A DNA stretch of 35,908 nucleotides from Parcubacteria bacterium C7867-001 (GCA_001189095.1 LFCK01000001.1:215251-251158); one strand, 5' to 3'; shown: positions 18,796-34,169, numbered from the stretch's first letter. Numbers and translations are program-made. Notes: generated from the sequence alone by a model not told the origin.

Positions 18796-19761
18796 ATGAG
18801 AGGCACTGTCGTCGGCGTACTCCGTGGAGGGCCATCAAGAGAGCATGAGGTCTCGCTAAAAACGGGTCATGCGATCCTTTCGAACCTCGATATGGATCGA
18901 TTTACGCCGCGCGATATCTATATCGACAAGGCGGGGCTTTGGCACGAACGCGGTGTGCCGACCACGCCTGATCGCGTTCTTCGAAATGTGGATGTGGTCG
19001 TACTCGGACTTCACGGGGAATACGGCGAAGACGGGGAAGTCCAGAAGCTGCTTGAGCGCTACGGAATTCCCTATACGGGCTCCGATTCATTTTCCTCCTA
19101 TCTTGCAATGCATAAATTCCTTGCGAAGGAGCGGGTGACTGAGCGGGGCATTTTGTCCGCTCGTTCGCAGCTTATCGAGCCAAGCGCGGATATTGCGGCT
19201 ATCGTCGCGGAGATAAATCGCACCTTTCCGCAGCCGGTCGTGGTAAAGCCGGTCAAGTGGGGCTCCTCGGTCGGCGTTTCGTTTACGCATGGATATCAAC
19301 CGCTTCTTGAAGCAGTACAGAAATTGCTCGATGAAGGAGCTGGTGGCGTGCTTGTCGAGGAGCGAATCAAAGGAACCGAGGCGACCGTCGGCGTCATTGA
19401 AAATTTCCGTGACGAAGTGCTCTATGCGCTTCCGCCAGTGGAGATCATCCCTCCCGATGCGGATTTCTTTTCGTACGACGCGAAATATTCAGGTGCGACA
19501 CGTGAGATTTGCCCTGCCCGCTTCCCAAAGAAGGTGACCGATGAGCTTATCCGACTCGCCCGTGAGGCACATGAGTCCCTCGGACTTCGCCACTATTCGC
19601 GCTCCGATTTCATCGTCTCTCCGCGCGGCATCTATTATCTTGAAACAAATACGCTTCCGGGGCTTACGACCGAATCCTTGATGCCGAAATCGCTCGCAGC
19701 GGTCGGTGTCTCCTATCCGGACTTTCTTTCGCACCTCGTCGATTTGGCGATGAAAAAATAG
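18796..19761 (+). CDS. ddl: D-alanine--D-alanine ligase
   Basis: GGPSREHEVS, LHGEYGEDG, GSSVG, YDAKY, LETNTLPG. Confidence 0.95.
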   Translation: MRGTVVGVLRGGPSREHEVSLKTGHAILSNLDMDRFTPRDIYIDKAGLWHERGVPTTPDRVLRNVDVVVLGLHGEYGEDGEVQKLLERYGIPYTGSDSFSSYLAMHKFLAKERVTERGILSARSQLIEPSADIAAIVAEINRTFPQPVVVKPVKWGSSVGVSFTHGYQPLLEAVQKLLDEGAGGVLVEERIKGTEATVGVIENFRDEVLYALPPVEIIPPDADFFSYDAKYSGATREICPARFPKKVTDELIRLAREAHESLGLRHYSRSDFIVSPRGIYYLETNTLPGLTTESLMPKSLAAVGVSYPDFLSHLVDLAMKK

Positions 19762-19762
19762 C

Positions 19763-20095
19763 ATGGACGAGCTCGCGAAGAAGAAATGCATACCGTGCGA
19801 AGAAGGTGGAGGTCCACTCACGAAAGAACAAGCGAGGGATCTCATGGAGCATGTTCCCGAGTGGACGCTCATGGAGGATGCGCGAAAGCTCTGGCGACGT
19901 TTTCCGTTCAAGGACTTTGCTGCAGCGCTGGCGTTCACCAATGAAATAGGCGCTTTAGCGGAGGAAGAATGGCACCATCCAGATATAAAGGTCTCATGGG
20001 GTGCGGTCGAAGTGACGCTTTCCACCCACAGGGCACGAGGTCTCACCGAAAACGACTTTATCCTAGCTGCCAAAATAGACTTGCTGCAAAAATAA
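19763..20095 (+). CDS. phhB: Pterin-4a-carbinolamine dehydratase
   Basis: FKDF, HHPD, THRARGLTENDFILAAKID. Confidence 0.9.
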   Translation: MDELAKKKCIPCEEGGGPLTKEQARDLMEHVPEWTLMEDARKLWRRFPFKDFAAALAFTNEIGALAEEEWHHPDIKVSWGAVEVTLSTHRARGLTENDFILAAKIDLLQK

Positions 20096-20124
20096 AAACC
20101 GACACTTGGTCGGTTTTTATTTTT
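20088..20124. terminator. Bidirectional terminator; likely the original tRNA-Ala terminator of the empty site
   Basis: AAAAATAAAAACCGAC-acttg-GTCGGTTTTTATTTTT abuts the left att core. Confidence 0.75.
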
Positions 20125-20221
20125 GTGGAACCTAGGACACTATATTAGAACCTCTCTCATCCAATCGCAGCCAATACATTTCTTACATCTCGTGGACTCA
20201 TGGGGTGGTCTGAAGGGTTGA
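20124..20221 (+). repeat. Left att junction encoding displaced recombinase tail A (WNLGHYIRTSLIQSQPIHFLHLVDSWGGLKG*)
   Basis: Shares CACTATATTAGAACCTCT (20138-20155) with 21891-21908; in frame with the LSR across the core. Confidence 0.8.
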
Positions 20222-20282
20222 GAATGCTCTTCTGGACCTAGAAGCGCTCGGAGATTAGAACCTCCATTCCCGTCACTACTTC

Positions 20283-20311
20283 TTGACCTGCGTCATAAAA
20301 CGTGGTATATA
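20283..20311 (+). promoter_or_regulatory. Sigma70-like promoter
   Basis: TTGACC-17 bp-TATATA; AAAGGAGGT SD before 20365. Confidence 0.6.
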
Positions 20312-20364
20312 GATAATCGGCAAACGATCTTCGTTAACTCAAGCCCCCGAAAGGAGGTGTCAGC

Positions 20365-21018
20365 ATGTCTTTGCCAAAGAAGACGATTGCGGACCTCCTG
20401 TTTGGGGTCCAACTCGTCGGAGCAGTAATCTTCTGCGGCGCGCAGTTCTTGCGCTCGCTTGAGGACGTTCACGGCGTCAGCATTGTTCAGTTCGCTCTTG
20501 CGACAACTTTCGTGGTGTTCAATCTCCTGCTCGGGATAGGCGCTCACCGCGCCCAACCGAGCCGGGTAACCATGCAAGGGATAGTGACGTACATCGTGTG
20601 GGTAGCAATGCTCACCGCCGTAGTCGTCGCTGTCGCAACCAACCGAGAATATCGGTGGAGCATTCAGGATAGTGTCACCCTCGGGATTGCGGTCGTTCTC
20701 ACGATCGGCACGCTAGGGTTCGGTGCGCTGCAAGGCAGACCGATCCGAGACCCGATGACGCTTGCGTTCTTGGCGATCGCGAGCAAGTCAATGCCGCAGC
20801 TACTGCTGGTCTGGAGTATCCTCGAACAAGGAGGTTCCGGCATCCCGGCGGCGAGCATCATTGTTGGACACTGCACCATTCTCATCCGTCTCGGCCAGAT
20901 TTACTTTATGGTTCGAGAAGCGGGTTGGGAGCGGAACCGGGTATGGCTCGCGGTTAGCGAAAGCGCCGCAGAACTGACCTGGATCGCAACGACCACAGCG
21001 TGGCTCGTAATGCTTTGA
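20365..21018 (+). CDS. Multi-pass membrane protein, possibly PQ-loop/SWEET-like
   Basis: About 7 TM; AQFLRS..GVS and SMPQLL repeat-like pattern; strong SD. Confidence 0.6.
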   Translation: MSLPKKTIADLLFGVQLVGAVIFCGAQFLRSLEDVHGVSIVQFALATTFVVFNLLLGIGAHRAQPSRVTMQGIVTYIVWVAMLTAVVVAVATNREYRWSIQDSVTLGIAVVLTIGTLGFGALQGRPIRDPMTLAFLAIASKSMPQLLLVWSILEQGGSGIPAASIIVGHCTILIRLGQIYFMVREAGWERNRVWLAVSESAAELTWIATTTAWLVML

Positions 21019-21055
21019 GGCCCATGTCCCGTAAGACGGATGTGGGTCTCTTTTT
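21017..21055. terminator. Terminator between convergent cassette genes
   Basis: GAGGCCCATGTCC...GGATGTGGGTCTC-TTTTT. Confidence 0.7.
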
Positions 21056-21073
21056 ATACAAAAAACGAATATA

Positions 21074-21781
21074 TCAATCTATACTTGCTTTTACCTGTAG
21101 CCGCGTGTCGCTAATCTTTTTTACTATCACATCCGTTATTGATTGCGTAAGTACGTCTATCTCAGCATTAAGTCTCCTAGCCTCTTGAATTGAAGTAGGC
21201 AATTTGTTGAGAGTATCGCAGACATTAATCGGGCCGTGCGTTTGTATTACGTCGATGTTTTCTTTGTAATTGAGTATTGCATTTCCTGCATAATCCCCAA
21301 CACCTCGAAGTTTATCTATCAACTGATTCCAACTCGAACCCAGTTCGTTAAAGTATGTATGAATATAGGCCGTCACTAATTCCATATCCATATCAACATC
21401 CGCTTTGTCTGTAACGTTATGTGCATCTAGAAAGATGACTCTCTCATCCATGCATTTCTTCACAGCTTCAAGGGAAGCTAACAATGCAGCGCTTTTTTGT
21501 TTGATACCGAGGAGTTTACCAATGATTCTCAATCCTTTCTCTTCAATGGATTCGATTAATTTCAAGTTGTAGGCATAGCGCCTATCGTGACTAGCTTGCA
21601 AGAGACTTAAGAGGAGAGCTACGATCGTCAAAAATCCTATAATGAAATTTGGATCTATACCTTGCTCACTCAGGAAGTTCCTGAAGGTATCGCAGGATAG
21701 ATATATACCTAGCAGTACTACGACACCTACCAACGCAATAAATATTGCGTTTTTCTTAAAACTTTTTAGGGCTCCATCCAT
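21074..21781 (-). CDS. Hypothetical protein: 2 N-terminal TM plus helical/coiled-coil domain
   Basis: 235-aa AT-rich ORF; TATACT 6 nt before ATG. Confidence 0.75.
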   Translation of the reverse strand: MDGALKSFKKNAIFIALVGVVVLLGIYLSCDTFRNFLSEQGIDPNFIIGFLTIVALLLSLLQASHDRRYAYNLKLIESIEEKGLRIIGKLLGIKQKSAALLASLEAVKKCMDERVIFLDAHNVTDKADVDMDMELVTAYIHTYFNELGSSWNQLIDKLRGVGDYAGNAILNYKENIDVIQTHGPINVCDTLNKLPTSIQEARRLNAEIDVLTQSITDVIVKKISDTRLQVKASID

Positions 21782-21808
21782 GCCAAAAGTATACCTAAGG
21801 TTTCGAGA

Positions 21809-21959
21809 AGATTAGAACCTCCCAAAACCCAAGCGCGCCAATACGGAATGACGGAAACCTTGACTTCGTGAACAAATGTGGTCCCTACTTCACTATATTA
21901 GAACCTCTATCATGGAGAGAAAAGCTATACGGTTCCTACAAATCGTTGATACCTGGTAA
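21809..21959 (+). repeat. Internal att junction (P-P' like): frameshifted recombinase remnant plus tail B (WSLLHYIRTSIMERKAIRFLQIVDTW*)
   Basis: GTGAACAAATGTGG vs GTGAACGAATGTGG at 32772 (13/14); RLEPPK vs ILEPPK; right half matches 20124-20203. Confidence 0.8.
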
Positions 21960-22073
21960 TACTTTCCTTGCCCATCACCAACCTCCTTATCAATTCTCGT
22001 AGGTCGTTTCTCATATTGGGAAGTACAGATTAGAACCAGGTGGCTAATCATTTAGAAACGATATTATCGAATC

Positions 22074-22595
22074 TCAGCGAACGAAGTACGGGAAGTAGTG
22101 CATTTGATGGAAGGTGTGTCCTCCTTCATGCAGTAAGATTGCCAGAATCAAAACCGCGACTCCTATATATAAGAGGAGATAGGTAGAAGCGAAGAAGCGT
22201 CCACTCCCGTTGTTTGAGCCAGCATTTTCCCACTCCTTCGGATATAAGGATGACTCTTCGTCATCGAAAGTTTTTGGAGTGAATAGTCCGAGAGCTTTTT
22301 CCAGCCGCACAGCTACCTGTTGCTGTTTCTGGAATCCTTTGTAGAGGTCATCAAGGAAGTTGAAACGAAGTGCCCAAAAGGCAACGACTACTCCGACTAT
22401 ATAAAGGAGCTTCTGACATGGAGAGAACTCCACATCACTTTGGATAAGCCAACCACTAGCCGCAAGCATAAGGCCGAGTGCCCACACACAGATATTCTGA
22501 ATTCGCTCTCGGATTGCATGTATGGACTTGTACCGCTCCTCTAGACCAGATACGAGGATGGATACTTTCTGCTCGTTGTCGAAGTGATGTGTCAT
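22074..22595 (-). CDS. 3-TM membrane protein, putative CBASS effector
   Basis: ATGA overlap with the cyclase stop; three hydrophobic helices. Confidence 0.75.
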   Translation of the reverse strand: MTHHFDNEQKVSILVSGLEERYKSIHAIRERIQNICVWALGLMLAASGWLIQSDVEFSPCQKLLYIVGVVVAFWALRFNFLDDLYKGFQKQQQVAVRLEKALGLFTPKTFDDEESSLYPKEWENAGSNNGSGRFFASTYLLLYIGVAVLILAILLHEGGHTFHQMHYFPYFVR

Positions 22596-23476
22596 GGGGC
22601 TAGATAATTCCACGCGGCTTTAGTAAATACTTCGGCCTTCGTAGGAGTGTGGTTAGTTCCTCGAAGTAGCCATTCAAGCTGACTAACCTCCTTATAGTTT
22701 GGATGAGCAGAGGCATCTCTCATATCGGTCCAGATATGAGAAAGAACATCGCGGGCATCCTCTCGGTAAGTGCTATTGAGGAATCGGTGTTCAGGAGCAT
22801 TCCAAACGAGTGATTCGATAAGGAAGGATGACATACTATCCTTCGCAAGAAGTCCCTTGTCTTCCATTTCCCTGCGAGTGTTTTTGAGAACACGGACAAT
22901 CGCCTTGTACGCCTGTGATGTCTCGTCATTCTTTGCCACGCCACTTGCGTAGTGCTGTTCGGGATAGCTGTGAATCACAGTCCCTCCATCCGTAAGAATC
23001 CCGATGCCTACTTCTGATACGAGATTAGGAGAGTTATACCGTTTCGACTGGAAAGCAGGTACAACATCAGCATTCACTCGGTAGGTATTGCCTGCAACTC
23101 TGATGCATTTGTTTTTTCTAGTCGCATAGCCCAATCCGAATTTGTCATTCAATGCCTGATGAACATCATTCTTGAATTGAGCAAAAGTATAGACGGGTGT
23201 TGATACGCCAGCCCAATGACCAGCGTGGTGTTCATTCGGAAGGTTCCGTAAGTCCGAGTAGTAGATGTCATCGTAGACCACGGCAATATCAACATCACTG
23301 TCTGTACGAATATTTGTACGATTTCTGTGGGAACCTTGGTGGATGATAGTAATCGAATTACCGAACCGCTCACGCATGGCTTCCACCACCATGCTTTTTG
23401 CATTCTCACAGCGATTATCCTCAGTCTCGCTGAGTGCTTTTGCCCATGTGTTGATGCGCTCATCACTGACATTCAT
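22592..23476 (-). CDS. CD-NTase (cGAS/DncV-like, CdnE-like) cyclic oligonucleotide synthase
   Basis: QGSHRNRTNIRTDSDVDI, KNKCI, ADVVP, YPEQH..GVAKN, YKAIVRVLK, SFLIESLVWN; TATTAT 6 nt before ATG 23476. Confidence 0.88.
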   Translation of the reverse strand: MNVSDERINTWAKALSETEDNRCENAKSMVVEAMRERFGNSITIIHQGSHRNRTNIRTDSDVDIAVVYDDIYYSDLRNLPNEHHAGHWAGVSTPVYTFAQFKNDVHQALNDKFGLGYATRKNKCIRVAGNTYRVNADVVPAFQSKRYNSPNLVSEVGIGILTDGGTVIHSYPEQHYASGVAKNDETSQAYKAIVRVLKNTRREMEDKGLLAKDSMSSFLIESLVWNAPEHRFLNSTYREDARDVLSHIWTDMRDASAHPNYKEVSQLEWLLRGTNHTPTKAEVFTKAAWNYLAP

Positions 23477-23548
23477 GCCTACATAATACGCCTCTAAAAA
23501 AGTCAATGCAAAATTCCTTTTAAGGGACCTAGTGGCCTTGTCTATTAC

Positions 23549-23576
23549 AAACAGAGCCCCTTCTGGGGCTCTGTTT
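23549..23576. terminator. Terminator of the metal operon
   Basis: AAACAGAGCCCC-ttct-GGGGCTCTGTTT. Confidence 0.8.
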
Positions 23577-23593
23577 CGACACCTGCAAGTCTC

Positions 23594-24220
23594 TTAAAGA
23601 AGTATTAGTAATAAGCCAGCAAGAGCTGCCATCCCGAAATCTTCAATAAGAGTAATCTTAGTCAATGGAACTTTAAGAAAGGTTCCAAGGCACGCGCACA
23701 GGAATTCTTCCTTCCGAGCTATCTTTATAGCTACTCCAATGCCACTGAACAACATTACGGCTAATTCTACCCACAGCAGAGCTGGGCTATGTATTCCAGC
23801 GAGCATTAATAGACCAAAGCCTAGTTCGAGGAATGGGTAGATATATCCGTATCCCATCCACTTCTGTGCAAGCAGGTCATAGGTTGAGTACCCTTCTGCG
23901 AATCCCTTAAGGTCTAGGAGCTTGAAGCCAGCAAAGACGATAAAGAACCCGGCCATGAAGTACCCTATGGTACTGGTAAGGGCGAACGTTCCATTGAAGT
24001 AGTCAGCGAGTGAAGCTGCAACGGTTGAGATCGTAAGCAGACCAAAGATGACAATGAGAGGGATATAGCTCTTCCAGGTGATTGGACCCAGGCCTCTATC
24101 CTCCATCATTTGCTTAGGTTTAGCCTTCTCTGTGCCTTCCAGTACCAGAGCCATTCCGCACTTCGGACAGCGACCTGGACCTTCTTGCTGTATCTCTGGA
24201 TGCATTGGGCAGATGTACAT
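23594..24220 (-). CDS. Heavy-metal-binding domain fused to MauE/DoxX-like membrane domain
   Basis: YICPMHP..GRCPKCGM; YPFLEL, CACLG. Confidence 0.85.
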   Translation of the reverse strand: MYICPMHPEIQQEGPGRCPKCGMALVLEGTEKAKPKQMMEDRGLGPITWKSYIPLIVIFGLLTISTVAASLADYFNGTFALTSTIGYFMAGFFIVFAGFKLLDLKGFAEGYSTYDLLAQKWMGYGYIYPFLELGFGLLMLAGIHSPALLWVELAVMLFSGIGVAIKIARKEEFLCACLGTFLKVPLTKITLIEDFGMAALAGLLLILL

Positions 24221-24222
24221 AG

Positions 24223-24696
24223 TTAGATTTGTTCGTAGCTGATAACAATGCGCTCCTTATCTTTCAGTACCGTGCTCTCGAAGGAATCTACTTCTACACC
24301 ATCAACTGTGATGCGAACACGATGATTCGCATCCGCCTTAAAGCCTAGGATTTCGTCCTTACTGAACGGCTGCTTCCATACGGCAAAGAAATCAGCAAGC
24401 GTGTAGTCTCGCTTCTCAGGCGACTCTACATGAATCACTCCATCTGGAGTATGTGTATGAAGCGCAGTCATACAGGTTTGCTGAACGCCGATATTCGTAG
24501 GCACAGAGACGTTCTCTCCATTCGCCACAATCTCGAGTATTGGGTGGACATGGAATCCCCCTGCCATTTCGTCATCACAGAGAAGCGCTAACTCACGGTT
24601 CGTAAGTTGGCTTATCGGCTTCTCTGGACTTCGAGAGAAATACAGCAGTCCTACTACTACAGCAATAAGCGAGATGATAATAATCGCGCTCTTCAT
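24223..24696 (-). CDS. Membrane-anchored His-motif protein, probable metal binding
   Basis: N-terminal TM; HVH, HTH..GVIHVE. Confidence 0.7.
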   Translation of the reverse strand: MKSAIIIISLIAVVVGLLYFSRSPEKPISQLTNRELALLCDDEMAGGFHVHPILEIVANGENVSVPTNIGVQQTCMTALHTHTPDGVIHVESPEKRDYTLADFFAVWKQPFSKDEILGFKADANHRVRITVDGVEVDSFESTVLKDKERIVISYEQI

Positions 24697-24697
24697 C

Positions 24698-25096
24698 CTA
24701 CTGTCCGTACCAAGCTGCCTTCCAATCCTGCATCTGCTTAATCTCTGTGTTCTGTGCGGAGATTATATTTTTCGCAAGGTCTTTTATCTCCTGGTGCTTT
24801 GCATTCTGAAGAGCAGCTTCAGCCATCATTACAGCTCCCTGGTGGTGCATAATCATCTCCGTAAGGAAGGCTTGGTCGAAAGCATCTCCGGTCTTTCCGT
24901 TAAGAGACTGCATCATAGAATCCATCTGTCCCTGCATGCCACTATTCATCGAGCCTCCCATCATTGTGCCGTCAGGCATCGTATGACCACCAGTTGTAGC
25001 AACTGGCTGAGGAGCCTTACTCATACCAAGCGCGTATCCTCCTCCGGCACCGATAATAAGAGCAATGAGTCCGATAACAATTACATTCTTTTCCAT
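24698..25096 (-). CDS. DUF305/CopM-like Met/His-rich copper-binding protein
   Basis: HTMPDGTMM, FDQAFLTEMIMHHQGAVMMA, IISAQNTEIKQM. Confidence 0.88.
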   Translation of the reverse strand: MEKNVIVIGLIALIIGAGGGYALGMSKAPQPVATTGGHTMPDGTMMGGSMNSGMQGQMDSMMQSLNGKTGDAFDQAFLTEMIMHHQGAVMMAEAALQNAKHQEIKDLAKNIISAQNTEIKQMQDWKAAWYGQ

Positions 25097-25135
25097 AGAT
25101 TTTTGTTAGTTAAGTAAGGCAAACAGGAAATGAAT

Positions 25136-25504
25136 CTATGGAGCCTTAGGATGAAGAATTCCGCTTGAGAATAATTCTTGCAGTAGTGGCGGTGCTGGAT
25201 AGAAACGCCTTCGATATCCTGGTGGTCGTTCAGGCTTTAAAACAGTTAACCAGAGCCAAGCTACCGCTAGGACAGGTATCGCAAAAGTGAGGACTTCTAC
25301 CAACGTAATAGCAAAAGTCTGTTGCCAATTGGTGAGATGGTCCAAGATAGACATGGAGCAGAGGGATGCCTCTCCTTGCATAAAGGGGCATCCGCCCATG
25401 CTATGGTCCATAGGCATTGCCATAAGGATAAGCATTAAAAACGGCACTACGAGCACCAGCAGAATTGCTGACCAGGAGAAAAATCTCTGTATGGGCTCAG
25501 ACAT
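25136..25504 (-). CDS. Small membrane protein heading the metal operon (DUF2946-like architecture)
   Basis: TM, MDH..CPFM..C, TM, Pro-rich C-terminus; TAGAAT 6 nt before ATG. Confidence 0.65.
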   Translation of the reverse strand: MSEPIQRFFSWSAILLVLVVPFLMLILMAMPMDHSMGGCPFMQGEASLCSMSILDHLTNWQQTFAITLVEVLTFAIPVLAVAWLWLTVLKPERPPGYRRRFYPAPPLLQELFSSGILHPKAP

Positions 25505-25586
25505 CAACCTATTCTATACCTTATCTCTCTAGGAAAAAGGTACACTTATATTTAGGTACCTATTAGCTAATTTCTATAGACTTCTT

Positions 25587-26039
25587 ATGAATATGAAAGA
25601 TACCTCCTACAGCAAACTTGCCCTCATGGCAGGACTCCATGTAGTCGCCATGTTCGTCCTGATGTTCGCCATGGTAAACACGTTTGCGAACGCCGTTCCG
25701 AATATCAACTTCTTGTACATGGGGTTCATGATGACCGCGCCGATGCTCATCCTTGAAATGCTCTTGATGGGCATGATGTACAAGGACAAGAAATTGAACA
25801 AGATTGTAATTCTAATCGGATTCATTATTCTAGTGGTCTCATTCCTAATGATTAGGTATCAGACCTTTGTAGGAGATAAGGGCTTTCTCCAATCAATGAT
25901 TCCCCATCACTCCGGTGCTGTACTTATGTGTGAGAAGGCAAAGATAACAGACCCAGAGATCCAACAGCTCTGCGCAAATATTATTGCTAGTCAGCAGGAA
26001 GAAATTAACCAGATGAATGAGATTCTAGATAGGCTGTAA
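25587..26039 (+). CDS. Membrane DUF305-domain protein
   Basis: 3 Met-rich TM, then FLQSMIPHHSGAVLMC..SQQEEI. Confidence 0.85.
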   Translation: MNMKDTSYSKLALMAGLHVVAMFVLMFAMVNTFANAVPNINFLYMGFMMTAPMLILEMLLMGMMYKDKKLNKIVILIGFIILVVSFLMIRYQTFVGDKGFLQSMIPHHSGAVLMCEKAKITDPEIQQLCANIIASQQEEINQMNEILDRL

Positions 26040-26186
26040 AGTTTAAGATAATAAGGTAAATCTCACCATAGAGTCGTTTTACTTCCACACAAGTAGGTAT
26101 TACCATAACTAGGTTCGACAGCCGAATAGAAATGACCTAACCCGCAAGCTTCACGCTACGGTATGGTCGAAAATCGTAAGCCATAG

Positions 26187-26267
26187 AAAACCCGTCATCA
26201 GGGCGTGGCTTACGTTATCAGGGGAAACTCTGGTAGGGCCGCAAGGCCTCCTGGTGGCGGGTTTTTT
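26187..26267 (+). ncRNA. Structured RNA resembling phage C4/CI antisense RNAs
   Basis: 16-bp closing stem, two GNRA hairpins, unpaired 11-mer complementary to flanking repeats. Confidence 0.65.
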
Positions 26268-26303
26268 GCTACCCACCAGGAATTACAAATCGTAAGCCAC
26301 GAT

Positions 26304-26756
26304 ATGAATAAAGAAATTCCTAATGGAGAAAAGCCTTCTCAAAAACAGATAACGAAAGGAGAAGGCATTACAGCAATCGTAGTTTTGATAATCTTCTGTT
26401 TTGTTGCATACCAGGCAATCACTTCAGTTCCGAAGGACAACAATACTGCACCCGCACCTGTTGCTGCTCAACCTACAAGGCATTCAGATATAGATGCCTA
26501 CATTGATGCTCAGGCAATAGTCGAGAAAACTCTTAAGGCTCCCTCTACGGCCAAGTTCCCATCATCTTCACACGCGACTGTAGAGCATTACGCGACAGAC
26601 GGATTCAAAGTAAGTTCGTATGTCGATTCACAAAACGGATTCGGAGCAATGATTCGTAGTGAGTGGACGGTCTTGTTCGAGTATGTGGACGAAAAGCTCA
26701 ATATCTACCAAGTAATCGTAGATGGAGAGGAAGTGTATAGGAAGCCAGGCACATAA
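26304..26756 (+). CDS. Single-TM exported protein (LKAPSTAKF / VDSQNGFGA type)
   Basis: Motif pair typical of phage/MGE membrane-anchored proteins; ATG just after the antisense target. Confidence 0.75.
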   Translation: MNKEIPNGEKPSQKQITKGEGITAIVVLIIFCFVAYQAITSVPKDNNTAPAPVAAQPTRHSDIDAYIDAQAIVEKTLKAPSTAKFPSSSHATVEHYATDGFKVSSYVDSQNGFGAMIRSEWTVLFEYVDEKLNIYQVIVDGEEVYRKPGT

Positions 26757-26899
26757 AGCCTGTCGTGGGTCCCCACGATCCTCCCTACAGTACGTTTAGG
26801 GTCATGGTAATGGTTTCTTATGGCCTTACGGAATAGACACCCCTCGTGGGTGCTTTTTCGTGTGCAAAGTGGCAATCTATATATGTACTGCACAATTGC

Positions 26900-27661
26900 A
26901 TGGATATTAACTTTCGATACACCCCACAAATACAGAGATACAACTCAGAGATGAGCCGGTATTGGAATGAGTGTCGCAAGCAAATGCCCGACCACGAGAT
27001 ACCGACATTCGATCCCCTCGTGATTAAGACCACGATTCCAGGAGAACCACTTGATGATGACTTGGGAGTAAACCGAACTGCTTATCTCAACTGGCTCGAA
27101 AAGCATCATGCAATCCGTTATCTAGAGGAAATGGATGGCATGACCACAGGCCATCAAGTACATCCTGATGGGGAGCACGAAATATACCCTTCCGACTTCA
27201 CACTTCATCTTCTCGATTTTAGACCCGTCATCAGTCTGGAGAACTCCTTCCACAATGGAGCAAATCCATTTACGAAGACAGACCCATACGCAGAAAGTCG
27301 ATACATTCGCATGAAGAATGACGGCTCATTCGTGTACGGGGGTGCTGGACGAGTAAAGCCGATAAAATTCAAGAGCTACAAGTCCCTCTACTATCGAGTA
27401 TTCCGTGCCGTCTACGAACTTGCTCCACACAACAAGGAATGTGTTCCCTATGATTCTATCGAGGAGCACATTGTCCGTCTTGGAGTTCCACCGGAAGCTA
27501 ACAGCGAAAAGCGACGACAGAGAATCAGAGAGGCAGTATCCAAGTCCCTTGAAGCAAACGCAAAGAGTCTCGACCTCCCCTTGAAGTACGAAGGAGTCCC
27601 AACCCTCACTCTTATTCAAGGAAAGGGATTTCGCTTCTCCAATCCTACAATTGAGGACTAG
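26900..27661 (+). CDS. Hypothetical protein with possible C-terminal winged HTH
   Basis: Helix RRQRIREAVSK followed by wing-like IQGKGFRF. Confidence 0.6.
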   Translation: MDINFRYTPQIQRYNSEMSRYWNECRKQMPDHEIPTFDPLVIKTTIPGEPLDDDLGVNRTAYLNWLEKHHAIRYLEEMDGMTTGHQVHPDGEHEIYPSDFTLHLLDFRPVISLENSFHNGANPFTKTDPYAESRYIRMKNDGSFVYGGAGRVKPIKFKSYKSLYYRVFRAVYELAPHNKECVPYDSIEEHIVRLGVPPEANSEKRRQRIREAVSKSLEANAKSLDLPLKYEGVPTLTLIQGKGFRFSNPTIED

Positions 27662-27699
27662 TAAGAAATAAAGAAAACCTCAAGAATTTCTAAAGATAT

Positions 27700-27727
27700 A
27701 AGACGGCTTTGTTGAGCCGTCTTTTTT
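27700..27727 (+). terminator. Intrinsic terminator
   Basis: AAGACGGCT-ttgttg-AGCCGTCTTTTTT. Confidence 0.75.
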
Positions 27728-27834
27728 GCTGCACGGTCAATTTTCTTTTTCGTACTTACCCTTTTTTGAGAGCACTCTTAAGAGAGCAACTGGGGGTATC
27801 ACTCCACGAGCATTAAAAAAATAAAACATTCCAT

Positions 27835-28029
27835 ATGAAAGCAGTTCAAATGATTACTGACGTGCAGGATTTTCTTAGCAACAAGGGCTACATCAAGACT
27901 TCGATGCTTGTTGAGCCGAACGGCAAGGTCCACCTCGTTCTGCGAGACAAGAAACGCGGTCAGACGATAACGGCACTCGTAAACGAAGTCGTGAAGCCAG
28001 ATATTAGCAACCTTGAGCCAATCTTCTAG
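27835..28029 (+). CDS. Small hypothetical protein
   Basis: 64 aa, first gene of a tightly packed operon. Confidence 0.65.
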   Translation: MKAVQMITDVQDFLSNKGYIKTSMLVEPNGKVHLVLRDKKRGQTITALVNEVVKPDISNLEPIF

Positions 28030-28031
28030 TT

Positions 28032-28247
28032 ATGGAAATTCCACCAGAAGTAAAGGAATTCATGGAGGTAAGCGGTAATCACTACAGCGTCATCACTGCC
28101 GACATGCCTGACGGAACTAAGAGCGTAATCTTGTTCCCGTCAGACCCAGGAGGAGAGAATGCTGGAGAGATAACAGAGGTCATTGAAGATATAGGGCGTC
28201 GCATTCTCGATGATGCCCCGACTTTCGAAGAATACTATGCACTCTGA
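28032..28247 (+). CDS. Small acidic hypothetical protein
   Basis: 71 aa, 2-nt gap upstream, overlaps primase start. Confidence 0.65.
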   Translation: MEIPPEVKEFMEVSGNHYSVITADMPDGTKSVILFPSDPGGENAGEITEVIEDIGRRILDDAPTFEEYYAL

Positions 28248-30060
28248 AAAACTACTCGAAGCGGCACTCGCCTACCTCGACGATTGCCGAACGGTCATTC
28301 CTCTCAACGGGAAAGTTCCTGTAATCCCTTCTTGGAAGGAGTACCAGGAAGGCAAAGCCCCGACTGCCGAAGAAATGACAGCATGGTTCAAGACCCACGG
28401 GGATAAAATCACGGGGCTGGGCATGGTCACGGGATATGTTCATGGACTTGCCGTTCTTGATTTGGAAAATGACGAAGACCCCACACGCTTTGAAATGCCG
28501 CCAACAGCAGTCAGTCGTACTGGCAGTGGTGGATGGCATTACTTCTTCGACTTCCCGAAGAATACGGACTTCGTTAAGTCAGGGAGTTTGATTCCCTCTG
28601 GTATCCACGGGGACATGAAGGCAGACGGAGGATATGTCGTAGTGCCTCCCTCAATTCATCCGATAACAGGCAATGCATATGAGTGGATTACCCCTCTCAC
28701 ACTTGAGACAGAGTTGCCTTCTATGCCAGAGTGGCTCGTCAAAATCGAAGATGATCGTAAGAAGAATGATATCGAGGCAACCGATTGGAAGGAAGTCTTA
28801 AGCGGAGCAAAAGAAGGTAGTCGGCACGAAACCGCAGTCAGACTCATGGGTAAGCTCGCATACCATCTTCCAGCTAAAGACTGGAACGATGTGGCTCGCC
28901 CTCTACTCCATGCTTGGAATTTGGAATTCAATCAACCACCTCTTCCCGACAAGGAGATAGATTCCATTTTTCGAGGCATTTCACAGAAGCAGAAAGGTCA
29001 AGGGGACGAGGGCACAACTTACGACTCCAAGGAGAATGTGCCGCACGCTACGCCCCGCACCCTTCTCACACTCTCCGCCATCATGACGATGCCCGAATCG
29101 GAACGACCTGAGTACCTCGTGTACGGCCTTATACCAGAGAAAGGCATCACAGCCGTAAGCGGCCATCCTGGAAGCGGAAAGAGCTGGTTCATGCTCCACC
29201 TCGCAAAGTGTGTCGCTTCTGGTGAGTCTTTCCTTGGACGCTTCAAGACGAAGTCAGGCAAAGTACTCATCATTGACGAAGAACAAGGAGCTTGGGAGCA
29301 ACGCCGTCGCATGGAGTTGCTTGGCTGTGCACCAGAGCTACCTGTCTATTTCTACTGCCTTGATGGGTTCAAGCTCGACAAGAAGGAAGACATGGACGCC
29401 CTGTTAAAAACCGTTAAGGAACAGGAAATCAGCCTTGTGATGCTCGACCCCTTCGTAGCTATCCATTCTCAGGACGAAAACTCAGCAGAAGGGGCACAGA
29501 AGGTCATGGAAGCACTTCAGAGATTCAACCTTGCAGGTGCAACGGTACTCTTCATTCATCACCACAGAAAAAGCACCTTCGGCTCCACAGGAGGAGCACA
29601 GAGCCTTCGCGGCTCGTCAGCTTACTCTGGTCGTCTTGATTCTCACATTACCGTGGACAAGAAATCCACCACTCCTTCGGAACAGCATCTCGACATCGAG
29701 CATGTGAAGTCGCGTAGAGGCCAGAATGTTGAGAAGTTCCAGGTTGTACTCACACAAGAAGGAGACGCGCCAGATAGCCCAATCAATCTTCGCTACGCAG
29801 ACGCCGAAGACCGCATTACGAAGAAGGATGAGGCACGCACGCTTATCATCACTTTCCTAGCCTCTAACGGGGACGCGACAAAGGAGGAGATTACCAAGGC
29901 CGTCCAAGACGAAGCGGAGATAGGAACGCGCAACATAGCAGAAGCCCTTTCTGTCATGACTAAAGACGAAAGCCTGACCATCTCCAAGGAGGGTAAGAAA
30001 AATAAATACCACCTGGAGGAAAAGGCACTTGCAGAGCCCGATGATGAACCACCTTACTAA
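28237..30060 (+). CDS. Bifunctional primase-polymerase fused to PriCT-like and AAA_25/RepA-like helicase domains
   Basis: LGMVTG, VLDLE, TGSGGWHYFF, GGYVVVPPS; GHPGSGKS, IDEE, LDP, IHHHRK, RGSSA. Confidence 0.9.
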   Translation: MHSEKLLEAALAYLDDCRTVIPLNGKVPVIPSWKEYQEGKAPTAEEMTAWFKTHGDKITGLGMVTGYVHGLAVLDLENDEDPTRFEMPPTAVSRTGSGGWHYFFDFPKNTDFVKSGSLIPSGIHGDMKADGGYVVVPPSIHPITGNAYEWITPLTLETELPSMPEWLVKIEDDRKKNDIEATDWKEVLSGAKEGSRHETAVRLMGKLAYHLPAKDWNDVARPLLHAWNLEFNQPPLPDKEIDSIFRGISQKQKGQGDEGTTYDSKENVPHATPRTLLTLSAIMTMPESERPEYLVYGLIPEKGITAVSGHPGSGKSWFMLHLAKCVASGESFLGRFKTKSGKVLIIDEEQGAWEQRRRMELLGCAPELPVYFYCLDGFKLDKKEDMDALLKTVKEQEISLVMLDPFVAIHSQDENSAEGAQKVMEALQRFNLAGATVLFIHHHRKSTFGSTGGAQSLRGSSAYSGRLDSHITVDKKSTTPSEQHLDIEHVKSRRGQNVEKFQVVLTQEGDAPDSPINLRYADAEDRITKKDEARTLIITFLASNGDATKEEITKAVQDEAEIGTRNIAEALSVMTKDESLTISKEGKKNKYHLEEKALAEPDDEPPY

Positions 30061-30221
30061 TGGCCATCTCTAGCAAAAGCCTTGAACGCTTCCGAGCAAT
30101 CTATGAGAGCCAGTACGGGAAAATTCTTACTGACGAGGAGTTAGACCGAAAGGCACAAATGCTCCTGAATCTCTACAAGGCTATCTACGGCAAACCAATT
30201 AAAAGACGTAAACGCAAATAA
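30060..30221 (+). CDS. Small 53-aa protein absent from the ORF track
   Basis: TAATG coupling; MAISSKSLERFRAIYESQYGKILTDEELDRKAQMLLNLYKAIYGKPIKRRKRK. Confidence 0.7.
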   Translation: MAISSKSLERFRAIYESQYGKILTDEELDRKAQMLLNLYKAIYGKPIKRRKRK

Positions 30222-30225
30222 TCCT

Positions 30226-30726
30226 ATGAACGATAAATTAAAAATTGCTGTCTACATCCGAGCCAGCATGGGTCTAGGTGAGAACCGAGGGGCTACTGCT
30301 CTATTCCAAGAACGAGAGATTCGTTCCTATGCTAGAGATAAAGGCTACAAGATTGACGAGCAGCATGTCTATCACGATGCCGTATCCGCAAAGGTACCAG
30401 GACGACCCTCTTTCGAGGAGATGATGAAGGCAGTAGAGGAAGGAAAAATCAACGGCATTCTCACCTACGACCTAAATCGACTTGCTCGTAATCCTGTAGA
30501 TGGAGGGCGCATCATCTGGCGAATACAACAAGGCACTCTCACGGTTATCAGCACTCAAAACGGAGGCACTGTTTACTCGCCAGGCACAGACATGTTGATG
30601 CTCTACCTGCACTTCGGAATGTCGAACCAGTTCTCATTGAACCTTGGCAAAGCTGGACCCAAACCAACTTGTCGCAACTGCCACCACGACTGCTATACGC
30701 GACCAGAAGAGGAAGTACAGCTATAA
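30226..30726 (+). CDS. Serine recombinase catalytic-domain-only paralog
   Basis: YIRAS, SAKVPGRP, NRLARNPVDGG; ends in CRNCHHDC. Confidence 0.85.
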   Translation: MNDKLKIAVYIRASMGLGENRGATALFQEREIRSYARDKGYKIDEQHVYHDAVSAKVPGRPSFEEMMKAVEEGKINGILTYDLNRLARNPVDGGRIIWRIQQGTLTVISTQNGGTVYSPGTDMLMLYLHFGMSNQFSLNLGKAGPKPTCRNCHHDCYTRPEEEVQL

Positions 30727-30809
30727 ACACTACAACGTAGAAATATATGTACTTTTAGAACGCACCTAATACGATAGAAATATCCAAATGTGTCAAGTAC
30801 ATATCCTCC

Positions 30810-30983
30810 ATGATGAAGAAACAAATTACTAGTAAAACAAATCACCTTACCAAGACAGCACAAAAGCTATTCGTTGAACGTCTACTACGGGAATCAGGCT
30901 TTTCTCCTAAGAAAAAGTTCTATGTGAAGGATAGGAGTGGAAAGCTCATCGTGAGATTCACTAAAGAGCCTAACTATGAATAG
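30810..30983 (+). CDS. Small basic 57-aa protein, possibly AbrB/SymE-like; absent from the ORF track
   Basis: LRESGFSPKKKFYVKDRSGKLIVRF; overlaps the next ATG. Confidence 0.55.
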   Translation: MMKKQITSKTNHLTKTAQKLFVERLLRESGFSPKKKFYVKDRSGKLIVRFTKEPNYE

Positions 30984-31191
30984 TGTCGAGGAACTACGAG
31001 ATTACATTGTTGCAGACACAATCAAGCAGATTGAGTCCATGTCGAGGGAGGAGTTAGTACAGATTCTGGTGATTATCACCACAACTCCTCTCGAACAGAT
31101 GGACGCAAACGAACTGCTTGCCTTCCGCAAGGAGTATGTCGGCAGATGGCTTCCTAAAGAACATGAACGAGATAGACACAAGCAAAATTAA
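30976..31191 (+). CDS. Small helical hypothetical protein
   Basis: 71 aa, overlaps neighbours on both sides. Confidence 0.6.
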   Translation: MNSVEELRDYIVADTIKQIESMSREELVQILVIITTTPLEQMDANELLAFRKEYVGRWLPKEHERDRHKQN

Positions 31192-32827
31192 ATATGTAGC
31201 TTATGCTCGCAAGTCTACCGACGACAGCGACAAGCAGATAAACTCCATCCCTGACCAGCTCAAGGAAATTGACCGCATTGGCAGGGGTTTGGTTCGTGCC
31301 GATACGCTAACGGACGAAAGATCAGCAAAGGTGCTTGGTAGACCTGGCTTCGAGCAGATGAAAAATCTCATTGAATCAGGAAAGGCACAGGGAATCATTT
31401 GCTGGAAGATAAACCGATTGGCACGCAATCCCGTAGACGGAGGGTGGATTATTTGGAAGCTTCAGCAAGGAGCCATACGACACCTCAAAACAGACGATGG
31501 AGACTACTATCCTGGTAGCGACATGCTTCTCCTATATCTCCATTTCGGCATGGCCAACCAGTTCAGCCTCAACCTGAGTAAGGACGTTACGAGAGGCATG
31601 TTGAGCAAAGCTGAAAGCGGAAGACGACCAGGCTCTGCTCCTTTGGGATACTTGAACAGCAACAACGGCAATAAGGGAGAGGAGTTTATCTACATAGACC
31701 CTGTTCGGGGTCCCATCATACAAAAGATGATGGAGTGCATGCTCGCTGGTACTCACAACGCTCCTCAGATATTAGAAATTGCTACCGAGGAATGGGGTCT
31801 ACGCACTCGTCCGACCAAGGACCACCCACGCGGTTGCAAACTCACGAAGTCTGCTTGGTACAAAATACTTCAAAACCCTTTCTTCTATGGAAAGTTTCAA
31901 TATCCTATCGGACACAAAGACGCTGAAGGAAAACGTCAGAAGATTTGGGTTGATGGAACTCATGATGCTCTTATTACCTATGAGCAGTTCCGAAAAATTC
32001 AGAAGATTCTAAAGCAACACGCTCCCAAACGAACAAACCAAACTTTTGCCTATATCGGGCTAATGCGCTGTGGAGGTTGCGGAGCACGCATCACCGCAGA
32101 ACGAAAGAATAAGACGCAAAAGAACGGTAATAAACACCAGTACGTCTACTATCGTTGTACCGGCCAAGTAGATAGAGACTGTCAGCAGAAATCAGTCCGT
32201 GAGGACCGATTGGAAGAAGCAATGCAGGAATTTCTGTCTTCAATGGAGATATCTCCTGAATTCCATGCATGGGCAATTGCTGAATTCAAAAAAGATTACC
32301 AAAAGGAAAAGTCCGACAAGAACGTTATTGGAGGGAATCAGCAAACAAGGCATGACGAGATAAAAGGCATGCTTCGCACCCTGCTCGATAGCCATCTCCT
32401 CGGACTCATTAGTGTTGATGACTTCTCAGAAAAGAAAAATACCTTAGAGCAGGAGCTGACAGGACTGAAGCCTTACCTCCCTGGTTCCGACATCGAACTT
32501 CCAGACTGGACTGAGGATGCCAAAAACCTACTCACCTTTGCTGAAAGAGCTAGTAAGGAGTTCAAGGAGGGTGAATTCGAGAAGCGAAGAGCAATCATAG
32601 CTGCCCTTGGAACTGAGCATGTATTAAACCAGGGAGCGCTTACTTTCGAGGTAGAGAAGCCTTTAGAGGTTCTAATAAAGACTCCTAAAGTTCCAGGTGT
32701 TGATTTTGAAATATTAGAACCTCCAAAAAGTGAAGCAGAATATACACAAATTGGCACTTTCGTGCCAAAAAGTGAACGAATGTGGACCGTACAGGATTCG
32801 AACCTGCGACCCTCTCATTGCAAATGA
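31163..32827 (+). CDS. Large serine recombinase (resolvase, recombinase, Zn-ribbon, coiled coil); 3' end runs into antisense tRNA
   Basis: YARKS, NRLARN, APLGY, NPFFYG, CGGCG..YYRC..C; last residues TVQDSNLRPSHCK are tRNA-derived. Confidence 0.93.
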   Translation: MNEIDTSKIKYVAYARKSTDDSDKQINSIPDQLKEIDRIGRGLVRADTLTDERSAKVLGRPGFEQMKNLIESGKAQGIICWKINRLARNPVDGGWIIWKLQQGAIRHLKTDDGDYYPGSDMLLLYLHFGMANQFSLNLSKDVTRGMLSKAESGRRPGSAPLGYLNSNNGNKGEEFIYIDPVRGPIIQKMMECMLAGTHNAPQILEIATEEWGLRTRPTKDHPRGCKLTKSAWYKILQNPFFYGKFQYPIGHKDAEGKRQKIWVDGTHDALITYEQFRKIQKILKQHAPKRTNQTFAYIGLMRCGGCGARITAERKNKTQKNGNKHQYVYYRCTGQVDRDCQQKSVREDRLEEAMQEFLSSMEISPEFHAWAIAEFKKDYQKEKSDKNVIGGNQQTRHDEIKGMLRTLLDSHLLGLISVDDFSEKKNTLEQELTGLKPYLPGSDIELPDWTEDAKNLLTFAERASKEFKEGEFEKRRAIIAALGTEHVLNQGALTFEVEKPLEVLIKTPKVPGVDFEILEPPKSEAEYTQIGTFVPKSERMWTVQDSNLRPSHCK

Positions 32828-32855
32828 GATGCTCTACCAACTGAGCTAACGGCCC
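32783..32855 (-). tRNA. tRNA-Ala(TGC), CCA not encoded
   Basis: GGGCCGTTAGCTCAGTTGGTAGAGC..TTGCAA..GGTTCGAATCC..ACGGTCCA; G3:U70 pair. Confidence 0.97.
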
Positions 32856-33116
32856 GTCCACGAACTTGAGCACTATAGCACAAGTATATTTTTGAAGTAC
32901 AGCCCAGATTTTCCACGTATCGTGCAATAGGAGGGGGGGTAGCGAAGAACATCAACTTGACCGAATCCGACACAATCCACGACTCTTGACGAAAGTTAAT
33001 TTTGTAGTATATAAGAACTAATCCCTTTCTGTATGGATAGGTGGTCTACGTGAGTAGATAACGATGTTTTGTTCCTGCATCCACTCAGGGACTGTTCATT
33101 CAATGAGGAGAGCCGT

Positions 33117-33479
33117 ATGGCTAGCCAAACCGTGCTTATCGTGGGTGGTCCTTCGAGATTTCACCTAATGACGTCCGTGTTCGACATCGACACGTTCCGT
33201 CTCCTGACCTTCAAGTTCGCACTTGAGAACGAGGAAGGGAGAAAAGGGACTGCCGATGTGTGGATTAACGGCGCTACGCAAGGCAACCGGAGCATTGAAG
33301 AGTGGCATTTGGTCGGGTACTTCATGCCGGAAGGCAAAGAAACCGTCATGGCGAACATGGTTCCCATGAAATTCACTTACTCGAGCAAGGACCGTCGCGG
33401 AATCATCTTCAGCGTCAAGAAAGAGACGCTGGTGGGGAATCCTGCGGCCAACGTGCTCGGCCTGATTAAGTGGGAATAA
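33117..33479 (+). CDS. Hypothetical protein
   Basis: GAGGAG SD; TTGACG/TATATA promoter upstream; terminator downstream. Confidence 0.7.
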   Translation: MASQTVLIVGGPSRFHLMTSVFDIDTFRLLTFKFALENEEGRKGTADVWINGATQGNRSIEEWHLVGYFMPEGKETVMANMVPMKFTYSSKDRRGIIFSVKKETLVGNPAANVLGLIKWE

Positions 33480-33500
33480 CCCGCCGCCTAACCTGTGAGG

Positions 33501-33538
33501 ACCGCCTGGCTCCTCAGAGGGTTGGGCGGTTTTCTTTT
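33501..33538 (+). terminator. Intrinsic terminator
   Basis: ACCGCCTGGCTC..GGGTTGGGCGGT-TTTCTTTT. Confidence 0.65.
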
Positions 33539-33605
33539 GGATGTCCTGCAGTTGCTGGATACAGAAAAACATGGATTATGGGCTAGAGACTGAAACGTAG
33601 GAGAG

Positions 33606-34055: not shown

Positions 34056-34083
34056 AAAACCGGCTGCAGCGCAGCCGGGTTTT
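34056..34083 (+). terminator. Intrinsic terminator
   Basis: CCGGCTGC-agc-GCAGCCGG plus T-run. Confidence 0.75.
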
Positions 34084-34090
34084 GTTTAAA

Positions 34091-34119: not shown

Positions 34120-34169
34120 CTCTTCCAGAAGGTTCTGGAATCTCCGGAACACCTAGCTGGGAGAAAGTC

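Follow-up and report, generated by a model that had tools for sequence, protein, structure and literature searches.

The stretch of DNA analysed here, called the window below, comprises 35,908 nucleotides of Parcubacteria bacterium C7867-001 (GCA_001189095.1, LFCK01000001.1:215251-251158) and is part of an 812-kb genome in 5 contigs. It contains an insertion formed of two units: a decayed unit A (20124..21876), and unit B (21877..32783, + strand), an integrative element of 10.9 kb that carries a short coding tail, cargo genes, a primase-helicase, an open reading frame (ORF) for a resolvase domain and the gene of a large serine recombinase (LSR). Our subject is the 3' end of this last gene. A first-pass annotation, made from the sequence alone, had proposed that the LSR gene is split by its own attachment (att) site, so that integration would swap the C-terminus of the enzyme.

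The LSR gene (31163..32827, + strand) encodes 554 amino acids from the ATG at 31163, or 569 from a TTG at 31118; the ATG is the likely start, since the corresponding database protein, P0004, has 554 amino acids. The ORF 31118..32827 is intact. Its product contains the domains Resolvase (PF00239, residues 27-169), Recombinase (PF07508, 197-300) and Zn_ribbon_recom (PF13408, 314-371), in this order and all above the curated cut-offs. In serine recombinases the catalytic serine sits in an N-terminal motif of the type YxRxS, and an alignment of 33 relatives shows Y29, R31 and S33 without variation. LSRs also possess, after the zinc ribbon, a long coiled-coil insertion that is their directionality element: in an AlphaFold2 model (34 sequences) of P0009, a related protein to which we return below, the insertion is present as helices 365-412 and 418-457, with pLDDT values of about 74-93, and the enzyme is folded up to about residue 507. 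Domain order, catalytic serine, coiled coil and the shift of the att motif described in the next section are all found, and by these features the protein is a member of the LSR family.

The gene ends inside a tRNA gene. An intact tRNA-Ala(tgc) lies on the opposite strand (32782..32855, - strand; the sole tRNA called by ARAGORN in the window), and the LSR reads ...KSERMW, then TVQDSNLRPSHCK*. The last codon that is shared between the forms discussed below is TGG, for Trp, at 32783..32785; it precedes 13 codons and a TGA (32786..32827, + strand) that are antisense to the acceptor and T arm of the tRNA, and that belong to the integrated state only. The earlier claim that the LSR runs into an antisense tRNA-Ala is borne out by both the translation of the ORF and the ARAGORN call. 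Among relatives, the tRNA-derived end is from 1 to about 30 residues long, and for this reason the integrated form can be described as effectively tail-less. All Pfam domains and all confidently folded regions precede the proposed crossover, so that a swap alters the flexible end of the protein, and not its core.

Two tails are encoded at the left ends of the units. Tail A (20126..20221, + strand), of 31 codons and a stop, lies in the P' arm of decayed unit A and is the best match of the tail profile described below, with E = 1.8e-19; tail B (21879..21959, + strand), of 26 codons and a TAA, lies in the P' arm of unit B (E = 5.1e-18), and a second copy of the element, found in sequencing run X20, starts here. 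Both translate as the first-pass annotation had stated, in frame with the LSR through the shared TGG, and they have 14 of 26 residues in common without gaps (54%). That resemblance was also part of the earlier claim, and it goes beyond chance, the two tails being members of a family of 56 matches. The annotation had offered both as partners of the LSR: tail B is the cognate one, and tail A belongs to the older, decayed unit.

Attachment sites within the recombinase gene

The word TGTGG is found at positions 20124, 21877 and 32781. These are the cores of the left site attL (20124..20128), of a P-P' (attP-like) junction between unit A and unit B (21877..21881), where the public Logan contigs of run X2 break, and of the right site attR (32781..32785), all on the + strand. 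The core of attR is 14 codons upstream of the LSR stop, that is, inside the integrase gene. The block common to all sites is shorter, namely GTGG: it is near-invariant across 47 aligned tail (left-end) sites, while the letters before it vary. In genome G169, whose LSR is the closest relative (72% identity) and also ends in tRNA-Ala, the two ends, which are on one strand with the left one 10.2 kb upstream, have only GTGG in common; GTGG is the sole block common to attL, attR and the G169 sites. Empty tRNA-Ala sites are found in genomes G023 and G007, where the antisense 3' end of the tRNA, ...GTGGACCGTACAGG, abuts the end of a convergent neighbour gene. Comparison of these sequences maps the crossover to GTGG at the 3' end of tRNA-Ala, the crossover dinucleotide lying within 32782..32785; symmetry favours GG.

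The geometry of the half-sites can be compared with a known case. The attP half-sites of the Listeria integrase, as described by Rutherford et al. 2013 (PMC3783163), contain a 9-bp zinc-ribbon-domain (ZD) motif at positions 16-24, and the same motif is 5 bp nearer the centre in attB. In the window, the tRNA-side motif ATTCGAACC (32796..32804) includes the T-loop word TTCGAACC, which begins 14 nt past the T of TGG. On the tail side, the ZD-type motif ATTAGAACC is found in both P' arms, at 20144..20152 in A and at 21897..21905 in B (both + strand), and in each of them the word TTAGAACC begins 19 nt past the T of TGG. The distance from motif to core is thus 5 bp shorter on the tRNA side than on the tail side, and since the spacings of 14 and 19 nt match the published shift, the tRNA side is a half-site of type attB and the tail side one of type attP. 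The zinc-ribbon domain most likely reads the near-universal T-loop DNA TTCGAACC. The left half-sites, which are the LSR 3' end and the host terminator, are only weakly symmetric. The motif also occurs in inverted orientation at 32666..32677; this copy was weighed as a possible second att site and rejected as a coincidence: the motif spacing is 38 nt against about 34 expected for attP, and the copy is not conserved in the consensus of relatives.

The B arm of attL is a bidirectional terminator hairpin (20096..20123) that adjoins a pterin-4a-dehydratase gene (19763..20095, Pfam). Before the insertion, this hairpin was the native flank downstream of tRNA-Ala; a similar hairpin with a T-run also precedes most tails in other genomes. 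At the other end, a terminator-like hairpin, TTGGCAC-GAAA-GTGCCAA (32751..32768, - strand, -14.2 kcal/mol), lies just downstream of tRNA-Ala and covers the weak P half-site. G169 retains the stem with both sides changed (GCCTC/GAGGC), a compensatory change, and a hairpin with a T-rich run after the end of the tRNA or transfer-messenger RNA (tmRNA) gene, antisense to the LSR, is found in most of the genes examined (about 40 loci). The element seems to bring a replacement terminator for the tRNA, whose own terminator stays at attL.

The LSR 3' end holds one more signal. A P'-like half-site lies within the gene at 32696..32725 (+ strand, E = 0.0054), with TTAGAACC at 32714, which is 68 nt before the tRNA 3' end as placed by ARAGORN. 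We surveyed the last 200 nt of 87 LSR genes (from loci L009-L038 and L093-L172) for the exact word TTAGAAC: it occurs 55 times, 44 of them read as LEP and 11 as [VIF]RT, and is missing from 34 genes. Where a tRNA was called, at 38 loci, the distance from the start of the word to the tRNA end is 68 nt (27 loci), 67 nt (2), 66 nt (8) or 79 nt (1). A fixed distance that is kept across two reading frames identifies the word as a DNA signal. Its orientation is that of the P' motif.

These elements suggest the following mechanism. The LSR of unit B would recombine at the GTGG core exactly at the 3' end of tRNA-Ala, with the acceptor and T arm of the tRNA serving as B' half-site, and with the look-alike TTAGAACC, 5 bp further out, in the P' half-site of the element. 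The P half-site and the core lie within the last codons of the LSR, and this is why the integrated gene ends in 13 tRNA-antisense codons. In a circular form, or at a tandem P-P' junction, the LSR would instead end in tail B, 25 residues past the shared Trp. An attP inside the LSR 3' end, by which the free and integrated states encode different C-termini, is thus supported by the arrangement of the sites; the free element would express the LSR with tail B, and the integrated element the LSR with 13 tRNA-derived residues.

Natural proteins exist in which such a tail is joined to the enzyme. Among 37 database relatives of the C-terminal half of the LSR, the tail directly follows the Trp of the LSR in P0009 (573 aa, on a 4.4-kb contig), and P0046, a 127-aa fragment of an LSR C-terminus, ends in the tail likewise. 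With these two fusions, and with encoded C-termini that do differ, the earlier claim of a different isoform in the circle and in the integrated state is supported. When residues 500-573 of P0009 were used to look for further fusions, 9 candidates yielded P0009 alone. The tail profile, run against 1.84 billion representatives, gives 16 matches at E <= 0.001: in eleven short proteins of 40-141 aa the tail is matched once, five (120 to 534 aa) are multi-stretch and repeat-like, and none is a full-length LSR, in a set where representatives at 50% identity hide C-terminal variants.

The tail family and its distribution

Across 222 genomes of the genus, a profile built from four tails has 56 matches (E <= 5.3e-5); of these, 52 are stop-free, and nearly all span positions 1-26. 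Re-scoring leaves 47 full-length copies, among which there are 0 indels. Three measures on these copies indicate that the sequence is read in the frame of the LSR. The information content by codon position is about 1.11/1.40/0.84, and the Wilcoxon test on the 46 distinct copies gives p = 1.9e-4 for the second position over the third, and p = 0.015 for the first over the third. For the LSR frame, the ratio of nonsynonymous to synonymous changes (pN/pS) is 0.48; the two other sense frames have 0.78 and 1.35, and the sequence downstream of the tail 0.9-1.0. Finally, stops are found in the LSR frame in 2 of 47 copies, compared with 38 and 47 of 47 in the other sense frames, and the LSR frame closes at most 5 codons past Trp26 in 38 of 47 copies.

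The pattern is alike at the beginning of the tail, which overlaps a half-site, and in its distal part. The first 33 nt have an information content of 1.22/1.45/0.88, the distal 45 nt 1.03/1.37/0.81, and the downstream sequence about 0.3-0.4; in the distal half (nt 33-77), pN/pS is 0.50, against 0.86 and 1.27 in the other frames. Residues persist through changes of codon family: position 11 is Leu in 41 of 46 copies through all six Leu codons, position 20 is Leu in 45 of 46 through five codons, Arg21 is kept through CGN and AGR, and Ser14 through AGC and TCN. A DNA profile that is blind to frame recovers essentially the same set in 151 genomes and adds two copies of altered length, the first by a 1-nt insertion and the second by an 18-nt deletion. 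Upstream of the tails, the sequence is variable host or arm DNA, and so the tails can be translated consistently only as the end of an LSR. Two other causes of conservation were discarded: an antisense gene across the tail is ruled out by stops in 46, 19 and 43 of 46 copies in the three antisense frames, and a structured RNA or DNA element by RNAalifold, which finds 0 pairs on the 47 aligned sites.

Protein-level selection had been proposed from tails A and B only. Constraint is indeed seen in the 46-47 copies, with the restriction that part of the similarity, that of the first 10-11 codons, comes from conservation of the attP half-site as DNA and not from protein selection alone. Within these bounds, the swap of the C-terminus together with a translated, selected tail is well supported, and we regard as likely the complete statement, namely that the att core lies inside the LSR 3' end at tRNA-Ala, and that integration swaps a tail which is selected as a peptide.

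The arrangement is general: it is common in a large group of small-genome bacteria similar to those of the candidate phyla radiation (CPR). Relatives of the LSR (E <= 1e-20) are present in 111 of 201 genomes of the genus. At 20 of the 30 best genus loci, the LSR stop is inside a convergent tRNA or tmRNA gene; the ten others comprise five without a tRNA call, two with in-frame stops (mis-parsed), one off its contig and two that read past the tRNA. Three of those five without a call, and one later locus, have tRNA-like endings. In metagenomes, 80 loci were collected with the alignment of 33 LSR relatives: the stop lies in a convergent tRNA or tmRNA at 42, while 10 are off the contig, 2 are mis-parsed and 26 have no such call, 7 of these having a non-tRNA ending with x(3-5)-[VIF]RT, which is TTAGAAC in the frame of the tail. 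The targets include Ala, Asn, Gln, Glu, Asp, Gly, His, Ser, Thr and Trp tRNA genes, and tmRNA. Pairs formed by an LSR at a tRNA or tmRNA and a tail on the same strand, 7.6-15 kb upstream of it, are found in G169, G176, G051 and G065. A search of viral contigs for LSR relatives gave only one distant match (24% identity).

Tails commonly occur in arrays, with copies 0.4-4 kb apart. Same-strand arrays of three copies, 0.4-3.5 kb apart, lie at G020:C2:36144-37328, G051:C1:44686-49058 and G065:C4:59059-62785, and further ones at G079:C23:4108-6240 and G098:C26:38570-41367; they resemble remnants piled up by one insertion after another into a single tRNA or tmRNA site. An LSR-3'-like arm, with the motif at 67-70 nt, stands ahead of at least 5 of the 47 tails. 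At least 8 tails (including L056, L063, L064, L066, L070, L075 and L077) share instead a conserved stretch 20-60 nt upstream, made of a hairpin and then two GTTCTA (the reverse of TAGAAC) 9-32 nt before GTGG, which is neither host flank nor the usual LSR end. A decayed unit can be recognised in G051:C13, where a fragment at 9433-9837 corresponds to LSR residues 435-569 (59% identity, one in-frame TGA), and where the tail at 13393-13473, 3.6 kb from the fragment, is protein-identical to the G169 tail.

Mobility and rival explanations

Evidence of mobility was sought in the public contigs, not the reads, of four runs (X2, X20, X3 and X6), compared with 19000..34500. In X2, the probable source run, a single contig of 10957 nt is exactly 21852..32808, with depth 16.2 between flanks of depth 12.3 and 13.1. 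At one X2 contig end, the 16 letters of 21852..21867 are followed by the stretch that leads from 32772 into the tRNA: the arm of unit A here adjoins the tRNA, with unit B absent, and states with and without unit B are therefore both found in X2. Run X20 carries unit B too, and over 10.9 kb its copy shows about 10 differences. In that run, the gene after the tRNA is ddl, on the opposite strand, with 36 differences in 161 nt and another gene order; such a flank implies a host different from that of the window. To the left of 21868, the letters of X20 are again LSR-3'-like, yet they differ from the window. Unit B thus sits behind another P arm in both hosts, which suggests that newcomers insert at the attR of a resident (P arm plus tRNA). 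That unit B is a live element is supported by these public contigs.

Several observations weigh against a tail that is swapped and selected. The junctions that the first-pass annotation had predicted, 32780->21877 or 32780->20124, were looked for and not seen: the contigs of X2, X20, X3 and X6 contain no circle junction (LSR end to 21882 or 20129 onward), although this is no evidence of absence, because contigs drop rare forms. The depth of unit B is unlike that of its flanks and the source assembly crosses repeated nodes, so that the neighbourhood could be a choice of the assembler. The border of the empty site comes from relatives, G007 and G023, and not from the same species. The fusion proteins P0009 and P0046 may derive from circles, or else from tandem P-P' junctions. 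The small ORFs 27835..28029, 28032..28247 and 30976..31191 have zero family matches, and no recombination directionality factor (RDF) was identified, RDFs not being one family. The statistics have their own bias: the tails were first collected by a frame-0 protein profile, which pushes pN/pS downward, the DNA-profile control covers 151 of the 222 genomes, and the copies are related, so that the tests overstate their independence. In the model of P0009, residues 508-573 (linker and tail) have pLDDT 32-40 and are predicted to be disordered, which leaves a folded or docked tail unsupported; a predicted complex of LSR 16-556 with the tail alignment scores 0.07 and 0.09, for a mark of 0.32 and with controls not run, and weighs on neither side. 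Finally, the non-tRNA tails of distant LSR clades have only x(3-5)-[VIF]RT, the DNA motif, in common.

These last points also feed a rival explanation, in which the swap is real and the tail peptide neutral: conservation would act on DNA, through the P' half-site and other signals of the end, and the open frame would be a by-product. Besides disorder and the retention of only the motif part of the tail in distant clades, it accounts for the overlap of the first 10-11 codons with the P' half-site, where TTAGAACC is invariant as DNA, and for subfamilies in which DNA similarity extends past the tail stop codon; and the word kept inside LSR genes in two frames proves that DNA-level selection on it exists. 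What this explanation leaves aside is the distal half, outside any LSR half-site, which has the same coding pattern, the codon-family switches that preserve Leu, Arg and Ser, the rarity of length changes, the sole deletion found being of 18 nt, the closure of all five other frames in many copies, and the lack of a conserved RNA fold. We consider it rather improbable. A crossover placed elsewhere, for example deeper in the tRNA, is much harder to sustain. The element would then have its own copy of the tRNA 3' end, the LSR would never be split, and the tails would be displaced and decayed tRNA 3' fragments; they do start like a tRNA (TGGA..) and carry a T-loop-like word, and this is the usual mode of tRNA-targeting islands as described in PMC12884075. 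However, the tails are alike across different tRNAs and tmRNA, all of them with the spacing longer by 5 nt and with TTAGAACC rather than TTCGAACC; the empty sites end at GTGG, a duplicated tRNA segment was not found at the left end, and unit B of X20 departs from the window just left of 21868. Hardly any weight is left for it.

Slightly more, and still very little, can be granted to a fossil or an assembly construct, in which unit B would be immobile here, or misplaced through the repeated att nodes, and no alternative isoform would exist. In its favour, the source run's Logan contigs break at either end of unit B, whose depth equals that of another contig of 8.7 kb (16.1) and not that of the flanks, and the circle junction was not seen in contigs. 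On the other hand, an independent 22.8-kb contig of X20 contains the LSR-tRNA junction uninterrupted, as do G169 and about 60 other loci, the LSR frame is intact, the two states coexist in X2, and the near-identity of unit B in two hosts indicates recent movement. As for circular forms in metagenomes, terminal direct repeats of 15-200 nt were found in 0 of the 80 loci, most of which are only parts of contigs.

Possible function, related systems and neighbouring features

If the tail is swapped and selected as a peptide, it should matter in the free or tandem state, because selection acts on its amino acids, and the two isoforms would then differ in activity or stability. Its most likely role would be that of a short linear stretch that tips the enzyme toward integration, marks the free-state protein or sets its lifetime, as a built-in switch, a proposal that is plausible enough to state but that we would not bet on. 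A broader scheme, in which we have a little less confidence still, concerns the whole CPR-like clade: its LSRs would be specialists of tRNA and tmRNA genes by way of T-loop DNA, and the tail swap would control directionality or lifetime without a separate factor. In this scheme, the 3' end of the LSR gene would be triple-coded, for protein, for the att site with its accessory P'-like site at 66-68 nt, and for the replacement terminator of the tRNA on the other strand; one strong half-site would let newcomers insert at the attR of residents, and cassette-like arrays of tails would result.

Serine integrases are prized as simple and one-directional, and there is the question of how elements without a known directionality factor control them. 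If the proposal is true, a C-terminus rewritten by the enzyme's own reaction would be a self-contained memory of the state of the element. The clade shows that serine integrases can use tRNA and tmRNA genes, hitherto the domain of tyrosine integrases, most likely via T-loop DNA; for retargeting studies, it offers a set of natural enzymes in which one recognition module is fixed and the other variable; and the arrangement explains islands and repeat arrays beside tRNA genes in very small genomes. In annotations, the C-termini of such integrases, when read from an antisense tRNA, should be treated as state-dependent.

Tandem accretion at one att site, with decayed units that lack a recombinase, has a precedent in elements of the ICESt1/ICESt3 type, which use tyrosine recombinases. 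Unit A and the tail arrays of G020, G051, G065, G079 and G098 resemble such accretion, with the difference that the junctions are here P-P' sites of a serine recombinase, unable by the canonical LSR rules to recombine with partners of type attB.

With phage LSRs of the Listeria A118/LI, phiC31 and Bxb1 type, the present enzyme has in common the succession of Resolvase, Recombinase and zinc ribbon, and simple att sites with a very short common core, as well as a ZD motif 5 bp closer to the centre in attB (PMC3783163). It differs from them in its targets, which are 3' ends of tRNA and tmRNA genes with T-loop DNA as ZD motif; in the crossover within its own coding sequence, which makes the C-terminus state-dependent; and in the single strong half-site evident per att site, with an extra P'-like motif at 66-68 nt. 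In the large LSR survey by Durrant et al. 2022 (PMC10083194), the word 'tRNA' occurs 0 times in the main text, and a tycheposon preprint mentions, in passages that give no detail, that a minority of elements bear an LSR. In the literature available to us, we found neither a serine recombinase divided by its own att site nor an LSR clade that targets tRNA genes; cases might be listed in the supplementary tables that accompany Durrant et al. 2022 and the tycheposon preprint.

Integrases whose target lies inside their own gene, which is then partitioned, are presented in a review of archaeal tyrosine recombinases as exclusive to archaea (PMC8371274). As in these suicidal integrases of the SSV1 type, found in archaeal viruses and plasmids, the att site is in the integrase gene, the target is a tRNA and integration alters the gene (PMC8371274). 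However, the domains found here are those of a serine recombinase only, and where the SSV1-type gene is split in two and presumably inactivated, the last 13 to 26 codons are here exchanged and the folded domains stay. In mycobacteriophages of the BPs/Brujita type, attP lies in the repressor gene and integration removes a C-terminal degradation tag (PMC3694055). The likeness to this integration-dependent immunity, as that source describes it, is an attP in coding sequence and different C-termini in free and integrated genomes; the difference is that the split gene is here the serine recombinase itself, with no repressor, whereas there a repressor is combined with a tyrosine integrase. The LSR thus resembles systems of the SSV1 and BPs types in one respect without belonging to them. 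As in genomic islands of tyrosine integrases, tRNA and tmRNA genes are the sites and the tRNA is preserved (PMC12884075). Those islands bring their own copy of the tRNA 3' part, and recombination occurs within the gene. Here, recombination takes place right at the end of the tRNA, and a new terminator-like hairpin downstream is all that the element adds.

It remains to describe the rest of the insertion. Unit A holds two ORFs (20365..21018, + strand, and 21074..21781, - strand) with no Pfam or PHROG family, both flanked by a 14-nt perfect direct repeat, AGATTAGAACCTCC, at 20252..20265 (+ strand) and 21809..21822. An 8.7-kb contig of X2 joins the two copies, from 20265 to 21809, and omits 1543 nt. 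The P arm of unit A is a decayed LSR 3' end (21809..21876, + strand), with the motif, a reading similar to RLEPPK and ...GTGAACAAA ahead of the core; it is 2 nt shorter than the intact LSR, belongs to an 81% repeat family, and matches over 21809..21844 with E = 0.015.

In unit B, a Prim-Pol/AAA_25 primase-helicase (28210..30060) is among the cargo and replication genes. A stand-alone resolvase catalytic domain of 166 aa (30226..30726, + strand; PF00239 at 1.3e-15, phrog_95) lies just upstream of the LSR, is a paralogue of the LSR N-terminus and could be a partner or regulator of the LSR; the LSR of G169 likewise has a resolvase-domain ORF upstream. The source genome contains at least two further relatives of the LSR, at G000:C1:388280-389557 and 199503-200564 (36-37% identity). 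Within the genus, the relative orientation of tRNA-Ala(tgc) and ddl varies: the two genes point the same way in G024, G017, G005, G018 and G169, and toward each other in G007, G023 and the window, which suggests inversions at this integration hot spot. The cargo at 22592-26039 comprises a nucleotidyltransferase-like protein (weak SMODS/NTP_transf_2; phrog_18746 at 4.8e-42), an HMBD/MauE membrane protein (23594..24220, - strand) and two DUF305 proteins, and may be metal-related.

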